43,510 nucleotides of DNA, from sequence record MZ424864.1; one strand, given 5' to 3'. A program made the translations under genes and the position numbers. Positions 1,912-3,143 of the stretch are shown here, in pieces. The DNA comes from Escherichia phage vB_EcoP_ZX6. How positions within the stretch are numbered: position 1 is the stretch's first letter; every line of letters begins with the position of its first letter. The notes under the pieces are model-generated. The model had not been told where the DNA came from and did not search any database. It saw only the letters and a program-made list of their open reading frames with translations.

Positions 1912-2511
1912 CTATCGTTTCAATTCAGCCATGGATGCGTTTACATTCTTATACTGGTTCCCAATGGCCTTGCTCTGCCATTGCCTACGCTCCCACAGAC
2001 CCCAGCACACTTTGTTGCGCTGTCCGTTGATGTACTGAGAGCAATCAAAGGTCCAGCGAGTACCCCCCTTGTGCACCCACCCAACTCCTGGGGAATTCTT
2101 CTGGTACTTGCTAATATAACGCCAGTCCAGTACAGCCTTCGCGGCAGATGCATAATCAAGGCTTTTGAGGTGGCGCTTCACGGAGCTTCCGTTGAAACCA
2201 GCCACGCCTACGTTGTACGTGAAGTCCAGGGCACCTAGCAGGGCCACGTCAGAGAGCTGCATAGGAAGCCCGTCAAGAGCTTTTGCATGCTCCCCTGCTG
2301 ATTGTATCAGTTGCTTCTGACAATCGCTCAGCGTGGCTCTCTGGCCCATTTTGACGCCCTTTGTCTCCCCGTAGCAGATAGTCGGGATACCCGCGCTGTC
2401 TTTGTAGGCGGTAAGGCTCAAGCCCTCGTTGTGCTGAATCACTCCAGTGATAGCACCACCGAGCATAGTGGCCCCCGTGAGGGCCGCAATAACCTTAGCC
2501 CTTAAACTCAT
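1912..2511 (-). CDS. endolysin, lysozyme-like muramidase with N-terminal signal-anchor-release (SAR) domain
   Basis: 199 aa. N-terminus MSLRAKVIAALTGATMLGGAITGVI is a weakly hydrophobic Gly/Ala/Thr-rich segment, followed by ..NEGLSLTAYKDSAGIPTICYGETKG.., which resembles the catalytic region of phage P1 Lyz / T4-type lysozymes. Confidence 0.7.
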   Translation of the reverse strand: MSLRAKVIAALTGATMLGGAITGVIQHNEGLSLTAYKDSAGIPTICYGETKGVKMGQRATLSDCQKQLIQSAGEHAKALDGLPMQLSDVALLGALDFTYNVGVAGFNGSSVKRHLKSLDYASAAKAVLDWRYISKYQKNSPGVGWVHKGGTRWTFDCSQYINGQRNKVCWGLWERRQWQSKAIGNQYKNVNASMAELKR

Positions 2512-2746
2512 ATTTAATAGTCCCCTTACGTGCCTGCTCCTCTAGGAGCTTGAATGTACGTCGCTTGTAATACGCATTCCACGCCAGGGTTAGCACCGCG
2601 CACACCGTCGCAGTGATGAAGCTAATAGTGCTCCAGTTCCAGCTCATTAACTCTGCCAACCAACCTCCTGATACCGTGGCACCGGTAACTGCTGCACCTG
2701 CCCGGGTAGCGAGGTCCGACCCAACCATGTCTCCTACCTTAATCAT
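2495..2746 (-). CDS. holin, pinholin-like (two transmembrane segments)
   Basis: 83 aa. TMD1 is Gly/Ala-rich (ATRAGAAVTGATVSGGWLAELM) and TMD2 is hydrophobic (STISFITATVCAVLTLAWNAYY), followed by a basic tail KRRTFKLLEEQARKG. This architecture resembles the phage 21 S pinholin. Overlaps spanin and endolysin ORFs by a few nt, suggesting translational coupling. Confidence 0.55.
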   Translation of the reverse strand: MIKVGDMVGSDLATRAGAAVTGATVSGGWLAELMSWNWSTISFITATVCAVLTLAWNAYYKRRTFKLLEEQARKGTIKYEFKG

Positions 2747-3143
2747 CCTGCTGCCCCTTCTTCCTGAATAGCTTACGAATCACCAGAATGACCACTAGGA
2801 AGACCAGAGGAATGCTGGCCCCAGCTAATCCGGCGAGGATAAGACTGTAACTATCATTGTTAACCACCTGCAGGCGCTCTGCCTGGATTGTGCCGGTACT
2901 AATAGTCTGCACTTGCTTCTTGCTAGAAGTATCCACAGTGCCTACGTTAGAATCTGATACATCAGTTTTGTTGGTGGTGCTGGAGTCCACCTTGTTATTC
3001 AAGCCAACGGTTTGTTTGGTGTTCTCGGCACCAACCTGGGCAGATACATCCGGCTTAGAACCAACTAAGCCGGTGAGTGCAGAGGTCGCCGAGCAACCAG
3101 TCAGAGTAACCGCGAGCAGTAACCCAGCGACCAGCTTACGCAT
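2739..3143 (-). CDS. candidate unimolecular spanin (outer-membrane lipoprotein with C-terminal transmembrane anchor)
   Basis: 134 aa. N-terminal signal peptide ends in lipobox LTGC (MRKLVAGLLLAVTLTGCS). Ser/Thr-rich middle region. C-terminal hydrophobic helix LILAGLAGASIPLVFLVVILVI followed by RKLFRKKGQQDD. This is the architecture of T1 gp11-type u-spanins. Confidence 0.5.
   Translation of the reverse strand: MRKLVAGLLLAVTLTGCSATSALTGLVGSKPDVSAQVGAENTKQTVGLNNKVDSSTTNKTDVSDSNVGTVDTSSKKQVQTISTGTIQAERLQVVNNDSYSLILAGLAGASIPLVFLVVILVIRKLFRKKGQQDD

Follow-up and report, generated by a model that had tools for sequence, protein, structure and literature searches.

The lysis region of Escherichia phage vB_EcoP_ZX6: a predicted Drulisvirus cassette of u-spanin, S21-family holin and R21-type SAR endolysin

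Overview of the lysis region

Escherichia phage vB_EcoP_ZX6, whose DNA was analysed here as one window of 43,510 nucleotides (record MZ424864.1), carries at positions 1912..3143 three genes that very probably constitute the canonical late lysis cassette of the genus Drulisvirus, with a unimolecular spanin (u-spanin), one holin and an endolysin of the signal-arrest-release (SAR) type lying between the large terminase gene and a tail (depolymerase) gene. A preliminary description, made from the letters of the same DNA, had placed three open reading frames (ORFs) here, overlapping at their junctions and with the spanin ahead of the holin and the endolysin, and all of this is borne out. The spanin ORF occupies 3143..2739 (134 amino acids (aa), ATG to TAA), the holin ORF 2746..2495 (83 aa, ATG to TAA) and the endolysin ORF 2511..1912 (199 aa, ATG to TAG). 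All three are encoded on the minus strand, which in window coordinates is read from right to left, and the order of transcription is therefore spanin, holin, endolysin. The spanin stop and the holin start share 8 nt (GATGATTAA), the spanin gene ending in CAG GAT GAT TAA and the holin ATG lying within GATGATT, and the holin stop and the endolysin start share 17 nt, overlaps that suggest translational coupling of the cassette genes. Upstream lies a T7-type large terminase (5744..3888, minus strand), and downstream a tail protein of 579 aa (1901..162, minus strand). The same description had called the spanin architecture rare and the gene order unusual, a judgement that does not stand, both being normal in this lineage (PMC4411677, PMC6115819, PMC6139136 Table 5); the parts of the cassette and their order were published between 2015 and 2018 and are ordinary for the genus.

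The window is a near-complete genome of a KP34-like Drulisvirus (Autographiviridae). Because every family-matching ORF of 150 aa or more lies on the minus strand, it represents essentially the whole phage genome in reverse-complement orientation. A megablast search with 1700..3400 matched 253 phage records, of which 234 are named as Klebsiella phages, and the best DNA matches to the lysis region were Klebsiella phage RCIP0046 (99.6% identity) and phage F19 (98.2%), the latter classified as Autographiviridae; Slopekvirinae; Drulisvirus. In F19, the genes F19_48, F19_49 and F19_50 are annotated as Rz-like spanin, holin and endolysin and are flanked by the large terminase and a tail protein, as here, and in RCIP0046 the first cassette gene is labelled 'U-spanin', while many database records label these genes 'hypothetical protein'. 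Given this conservation of the cassette DNA in 253 records, together with E-values against the PHROG profiles of 5.6e-52 for the spanin, 1.5e-16 for the holin and 1.2e-36 for the endolysin, the cassette is not a product of chance. Searches against NCBIfam returned sub-threshold hits only (spanin2_3, 21.6 against 80 bits; BgtA endolysin, 41 against 315 bits). The window (1..43510) contains no direct repeat of 40 bp or longer, so that terminal repeats of the F19 type (119 bp) are present in it at most once.

As to expression, sigma-70-like sites in 1..6200 numbered 3 against 5.4 expected from shuffled sequence, with no excess, and terminator-like sites 5 against 4.3, with no notable excess. A promoter or terminator of the cassette's own was dropped as a candidate, since such signals lie at about or below the shuffle expectation. 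It seems that the cassette belongs to a late transcript made by the phage RNA polymerase, with which this lack of signal is consistent.

Two records with Acinetobacter-type names, PQ049254.1 ('Acinetobacter phage vB_AbaP_Indie') and PV759417.1 ('Klebsiella phage vB_Aba_QH1'), also hold a Drulisvirus lysis region, 97-98.6% identical to this one, and their host or name labels may be unreliable.

The unimolecular spanin

The 134-aa product of 2739..3143 (minus strand) is a putative u-spanin of the T1 gp11 family, an assignment supported by its motifs and by homology. Its N-terminal lipoprotein signal peptide spans residues 1-17 (3093..3143, minus strand), in which a basic n-region and a hydrophobic h-region (MRKLVAGLLLAVTLTG, followed by C17-S18) lead to the lipobox LTGC at 3093..3104, with Cys17 predicted to be lipidated; the Pfam model LPAM_1 scores 20.3 bits on it against a cut-off of 20. 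The residue at +2 is Ser18 and there is no Lol-avoidance Asp, as for sorting to the outer membrane, from which an Asp in this position bars lipoproteins. Beyond the signal, residues 99-121 are the sole strongly hydrophobic segment, with a 19-residue Kyte-Doolittle (KD) peak of 2.66, and hydropathy, translation and AlphaFold2 (AF2) all point to a C-terminal transmembrane helix, SLILAGLAGASIPLVFLVVILVI (2778..2846, minus strand), followed by the basic tail RKLFRKK. The lipobox and the single C-terminal transmembrane domain (TMD) read earlier in this protein are thus upheld by sequence, hydropathy and the LPAM_1 match. The single-sequence AF2 model is poor overall (mean predicted local distance difference test (pLDDT) 57.8, predicted template modelling score (pTM) 0.28) and predicts the terminal helices alone, with the highest pLDDT (74-83) in a helix at 97-129 and values of about 50 in residues 28-96. 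The periplasmic part has a high content of S, T, V and N and no Cys, Cys17 being the only one in the protein; no u-spanin carries a periplasmic Cys (PMC6139136).

Homology places the protein in the same family. Its whole length is covered by a match to PHROG 1804, 'Rz-like spanin' (E 5.6e-52), and the same holds for T1 gp11, taken from NC_005833 (E 9.7e-45); a direct BLASTP comparison of the two gives 42% identity (E 5e-27), in agreement with the likeness to gp11 that had been proposed. In an alignment of six spanins (this one and those of F19, Kc261, Slant, Rtp and T1), L-x-G-C-S is invariant, with L14, G16, C17 and S18 the same in all six, and AQ-GAEN-K is conserved; the F19 protein is 97% identical to this one. 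A tblastn search found homologues in 1,166 phage records, and among the matches listed those beyond near-identical Drulisvirus are largely from T1-like Drexlerviridae.

No second spanin system accompanies it. With every start codon of the six frames allowed, a strict scan of the whole window for a basic and hydrophobic leader, free of acidic residues, with a canonical lipobox behind it returned the 134-aa ORF only. A second scan, with relaxed lipobox criteria, turned up nothing convincing on the coding strand close to the cassette. Within the spanin gene, a search for an embedded Rz1-like ORF (same strand, out of frame, at least 20 aa) found a sole ORF of 21 aa, with a TTG start and no Cys. 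These scans rule out a two-component Rz/Rz1 pair, separate or embedded, in accordance with the earlier failure to find an embedded Rz1-like ORF. Two relaxed matches on the coding strand, 'AILC' in 27368..27532 and 'WGLC' in 36545..36742, were rejected, being distant from the cassette and devoid of lipoprotein-like n- and h-regions and of a partner inner-membrane spanin (i-spanin).

The holin

Profile evidence supports the 83-aa product of 2495..2746 (minus strand) as a pinholin-like holin of the phage 21 S type (class II), much as had been suggested. Pfam PF04971 (phage 21 holin S) scores 26.6 bits on it against a gathering cut-off of 26 (E 6.1e-06). Moreover, residues 18-82, which include both hydrophobic segments, match PHROG 20 (E 1.5e-16), the profile that S21 itself matches over its whole length (E 1.1e-32); the S21 sequence used as query is 100% identical to the ORF of Escherichia phage 21 annotated as antiholin and holin class II. 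Residues 12-34 (TMD1-like, 2645..2713) are weakly hydrophobic, with KD values of 0.83-0.98 and 61-63% Gly/Ala/Ser/Thr, residues 38-59 (TMD2, 2570..2635) are hydrophobic, and the C-terminal tail carries a charge of +5. These features may point to the two-TMD topology of a pinholin.

The holin gene has two in-frame ATG codons, M1 and M7 (2726..2746, minus strand), preceded by the Shine-Dalgarno-like sequences GAAGGGG and AAGGTAGGAG, respectively. The residues IKVGD that the longer form has in addition leave the net charge unchanged, and the homologue from phage Slant does not conserve M7. The two codons could possibly provide a dual-start holin and antiholin, or the start may have been mis-called.

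The SAR endolysin

The 199-aa product of 1912..2511 (minus strand) is, as its sequence supports, a candidate SAR endolysin of the R21 type with a GH24, T4-lysozyme-like domain, in which an uncleaved anchor (2437..2493) is predicted directly ahead of the catalytic E-x8-D-x5-T motif (2380..2427). The n-region MSLRAK is followed by a SAR-like hydrophobic stretch at residues 7-25, VIAALTGATMLGGAITGVI, with a KD value of 1.84, as compared with 2.11 in R21. Residues 27-135 match Pfam Phage_lysozyme (PF00959; E 2.9e-21), and the protein matches the endolysin family PHROG 7 (E 1.2e-36). Its best relatives in the PDB are 3HDE (E 2.5e-10 by HMMER) and also 3HDF, which we take to be R21 of phage 21, and 4ZPU (RrrD). 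The alignment with 3HDE begins at residue 2 and thus takes in the SAR segment, and the triad E29-x8-D38-x5-T44 aligns with E35-x8-D-x5-T of R21. T1 gp12 is a homologue as well (29% identity, E 6e-15 by BLASTP), and an HHpred match to R21 has been reported for a Drulisvirus endolysin (PMC10194101).

The preliminary description had read this protein as a SAR-type N-terminus fused to a lysozyme fold and had named P1 Lyz for comparison. The SAR lysozyme reading is supported, given that the best solved relative is R21 and is aligned from residue 2, but the protein resembles R21 rather than P1 Lyz. Cys residues are found at 46, 64, 157 and 169 and none in residues 1-45, and the second residue of the triad is Asp, not Cys, so that disulfide caging of the P1 Lyz type, which needs a Cys in the SAR segment and a catalytic Cys, was rejected. 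With a Cys-free SAR segment, disulfide isomerisation as in P1 Lyz is not expected, and the mode of R21 is the closer analogue.

Alternative readings of the three proteins

Several points weigh against the assignments made above. The Pfam score of the holin exceeds its cut-off by 0.6 bits only, and BLASTP aligns the holin with S21 at 31% identity over just 35 residues around TMD2 (E 5e-05). The N-terminus of the endolysin contains a possible signal-peptidase site, GGA/I. In the spanin, a beta-rich periplasmic domain is expected of the gp11 family, and AF2, with a pLDDT of about 50 in that region, is uninformative about it. Finally, a literature search found no experiment on Drulisvirus lysis proteins, the published assignments being all in silico. 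For the holin, such points feed a different topology, in which the protein is class III-like with a single TMD and residues 1-34 form a soluble N-terminal domain. This is how KP34-like holins have been published, with TOPCONS giving one TMD and a class III assignment (PMC4411677) and a later study again one TMD for a Drulisvirus holin (PMC10194101); in our own hydropathy analysis as well, a single segment (about 36-59) exceeds a 19-residue KD of 1.0, the BLASTP match to S21 is confined to the TMD2 region, and for T1 gp13, the holin partner of gp11 and gp12, the annotation shows one TMD. Against it, TMD1 of S21, which is experimentally established, is even less hydrophobic (KD 0.33) than its counterpart here (up to 0.98) on the same scale, so that predictors working with a threshold would miss both, and the single-TMD calls for KP34-like holins are read here as a matter of predictor threshold. 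The PHROG 20 match, moreover, starts at residue 18 of the holin, in a profile matched by S21 from end to end, and the Pfam score lies above the curated threshold of the phage 21 holin S family. A single-TMD holin is accordingly considered possible but unlikely, and either topology would be compatible with pinholin function beside a SAR endolysin.

For the endolysin, the alternative is a cleavable Sec signal peptide (an SP-endolysin), from which a soluble enzyme would be secreted and controlled in some other way. The N-terminus could pass for one, with MSLRAK as its n-region, an h-region 11-19 residues long and the possible -3/-1 site G18-G19-A20 before I21, and a 'signal peptide' was predicted for a Drulisvirus endolysin (PMC10194101). 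This reading is improbable all the same, because the HMMER alignment with R21 (3HDE) runs from residue 2 through the SAR segment, 58% of that segment is Gly/Ala/Ser/Thr (63% in R21), catalytic Glu29 lies only 4-8 residues past it, as in R21, and the gene is paired with that of an S21-family holin. In R21, the released SAR helix is reportedly taken up into the active fold (Sun et al. 2009, as cited in PMC10194101). Scarcely credible, finally, is the idea that the 134-aa product is a phage lipoprotein of an ordinary kind, such as a Cor-like superinfection-exclusion factor, and that something else disrupts the outer membrane. The protein's match to PHROG 1119 (Cor superinfection exclusion protein) is weak (E 0.012) and confined to residues 1-39, thus covering just the signal peptide, whereas that to PHROG 1804 is full-length with an E-value of 5.6e-52. 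A C-terminal TMD on a lipoprotein sorted to the outer membrane is the defining topology of u-spanins, the gene appears to be translationally linked to those of the holin and the endolysin, and the genome is without any other spanin candidate; T1 gp11, to which the protein is 42% identical, complements lambda Rz/Rz1 defects (PMC6139136). The assignment to u-spanin, S21-family holin and R21-type SAR endolysin is therefore retained, and the three genes can be annotated as such with confidence.

Proposed course of lysis

From these assignments we infer the following course of lysis, in every step by homology with phage 21 and T1. The endolysin would be exported by Sec and held, inactive, in the inner membrane by its Gly/Ala-rich SAR segment, while the S21-type holin would build up in the same membrane until, at a programmed time, small holes collapse the proton-motive force. 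That these holes, of about 2 nm in pinholins of the S21 type, would depolarise the membrane without letting the endolysin pass is suggested by the pairing of the holin with a SAR-type endolysin. Depolarisation would then free the SAR segment and allow the lysozyme to refold to its active form and to degrade the peptidoglycan; as the SAR segment is without Cys, regulation would be steric, of the R21 type. The u-spanin would span the envelope, with lipidated Cys17 fixing it to the outer membrane and the C-terminal helix to the inner one, and, once the wall no longer restrains it, would disrupt the outer membrane, probably by fusion with the inner one. Membrane fusion is the model put forward for u-spanins in a survey of 2018, according to which their mechanism is overall without physiological or biochemical data (PMC6139136).

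The cassette offers little new biology, and the window is confirmed as a typical Drulisvirus whose lysis module is the one by which the genus is defined. Phages of the Drulisvirus type are widely used as candidates for Klebsiella therapy, and for that use data on the timing of lysis and on how the outer membrane is disrupted would be helpful, though unsurprising.

Neighbouring and other ORFs

Directly upstream of the spanin gene lies a conserved ORF for a soluble protein of 60 aa (3143..3325, minus strand; PHROG 7375, function not assigned, E 3.3e-37). Its stop codon and the start of the spanin gene overlap (TAATG), and it is present in 264 phage records. An ORF of about 60 aa stands directly upstream of the u-spanin gene in Slant and Kc261 too, with 33-34% identity over a short alignment. 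The TAATG overlap and the position of this counterpart in three Autographiviridae genera raise the possibility of a role in the cassette, to which the ORF may be coupled, although its membership is uncertain. That it encodes a fourth component or regulator, for instance a timing factor or a modulator of the spanin or the holin, or that M1 and M7 give a holin/antiholin pair, or both, seems improbable.

Further upstream, an ORF of 181 aa rich in Ala, Thr, Val and Gly (3343..3888, minus strand; PHROG 9732, function not assigned) begins with an ATG that overlaps the terminase stop (TAATG), and its counterparts measure 124 aa in F19, 180 aa in RCIP0046 and 226 aa in Kc261. Paralogy of the 60-aa and 181-aa ORFs was considered and rejected, BLASTP giving no alignment between them. 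On the other side of the cassette, the terminal tail protein of 579 aa (162..1901, minus strand) matches PHROG 4217 (E 4.6e-194) from profile position 130 onward, and for that reason the N-terminal portion typical of the family seems to be missing from it; this presumably fits the KP34-type depolymerase tailspikes, whose attachment is through an anchor or tail-fibre protein of its own. It is at this gene that the similarity to F19 and to many other relatives stops (megablast query coverage 96%).

Elsewhere in the window, a 69-aa ORF of the early/middle region, far from the cassette (29252..29461, minus strand), is a small membrane protein that consists of nearly nothing but two strongly hydrophobic segments (19-residue KD 2.2-2.3). 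In addition, ORFs of 58, 61 and 54 aa at 43081..43257, 43312..43497 and 27368..27532 (all on the minus strand) have one predicted transmembrane segment each, the first two at the early end of the genome.

Comparison with known lysis cassettes

T1 gp11, the prototype of the u-spanins (PMC6139136), resembles the spanin in having a lipobox and a C-terminal TMD, in size (133 against 134 aa), in its match to PHROG 1804 and in the lack of a periplasmic Cys, and it is paired with a SAR endolysin, gp12, homologous to the one here (29% identity). T1, however, is a siphophage of the Drexlerviridae and the present phage a podophage of the Autographiviridae; in T1 and Rtp the order is holin, endolysin, spanin instead of spanin, holin, endolysin, and the T1 holin gp13 belongs to PHROG 2877, not to PHROG 20. 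S21 of phage 21 shares with the holin PF04971, PHROG 20 and a similar hydropathy pattern, in which a weakly hydrophobic segment rich in Gly/Ala/Ser/Thr (TMD1 in S21) is followed by a hydrophobic TMD2 and a basic tail. The dual-start motif MKSM of S21 has no clear equivalent in this holin, where M1 and M7 are found instead. R21 shares with the endolysin the E-x8-D-x5-T triad and a Cys-free SAR segment and is about 35 aa shorter (165 aa in the 3HDE chain against 199 aa). Phage 21, unlike the present phage, relies on an Rz/Rz1 spanin of two components, and its genes stand in the order holin, endolysin, spanin.

Within the Autographiviridae, phiKMV has its cassette after the terminase genes, as here, and combines a pinholin (gp44) and a SAR endolysin (gp45) with Rz/Rz1 (Briers et al. 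2011, as cited in PMC4411677). It differs in its order of holin, endolysin, Rz, Rz1 and in its two-component spanin, and similarity between the cassettes of phiKMV and KP34 is about 30% over 22% coverage (PMC4411677). Closer in layout are the PhiM1-like Pectobacterium phages, for which the order u-spanin, holin, SAR endolysin was described by Buttimer et al. in 2018, even though their DNA identity to KP34 is 7-9% (PMC6115819). In the records of Phimunavirus Slant and Bonnellvirus Kc261 (a Kosakonia virus), which were inspected here, u-spanin, holin and endolysin likewise follow the terminase and the ORF of about 60 aa. Their spanins are homologous to the present one (41-45% identity), although these phages belong to different genera and their holins differ in length and N-terminus.

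The published Drulisvirus cassettes, finally, are those of KP34, F19, NTUH-K2044-K1-1, SU503 and SU552A (formerly 'Kp34likevirus'), which match the present one in gene content and gene order, in their place between the terminase and the tail/depolymerase gene, and in the size of the holin (83 aa). Eriksson et al. in 2015 made the order u-spanin, 83-residue holin, SAR endolysin a criterion of the genus and contrasted it with the holin, endolysin, Rz, Rz1 of phiKMV (PMC4411677, section 3.7). Kongari et al. in 2018 listed F19, KP34 and NTUH-K2044-K1-1 among 28 u-spanins of the T1 gp11 family, all of which, except those of J8-65 and Limezero, sit in cassettes with a pinholin and a SAR endolysin (PMC6139136, Table 5). 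The holin has been published as a single-TMD protein of class III, whereas its profile matches here point to the phage 21 S family; between the cassette of vB_EcoP_ZX6 and that published for Drulisvirus there is no difference of substance.

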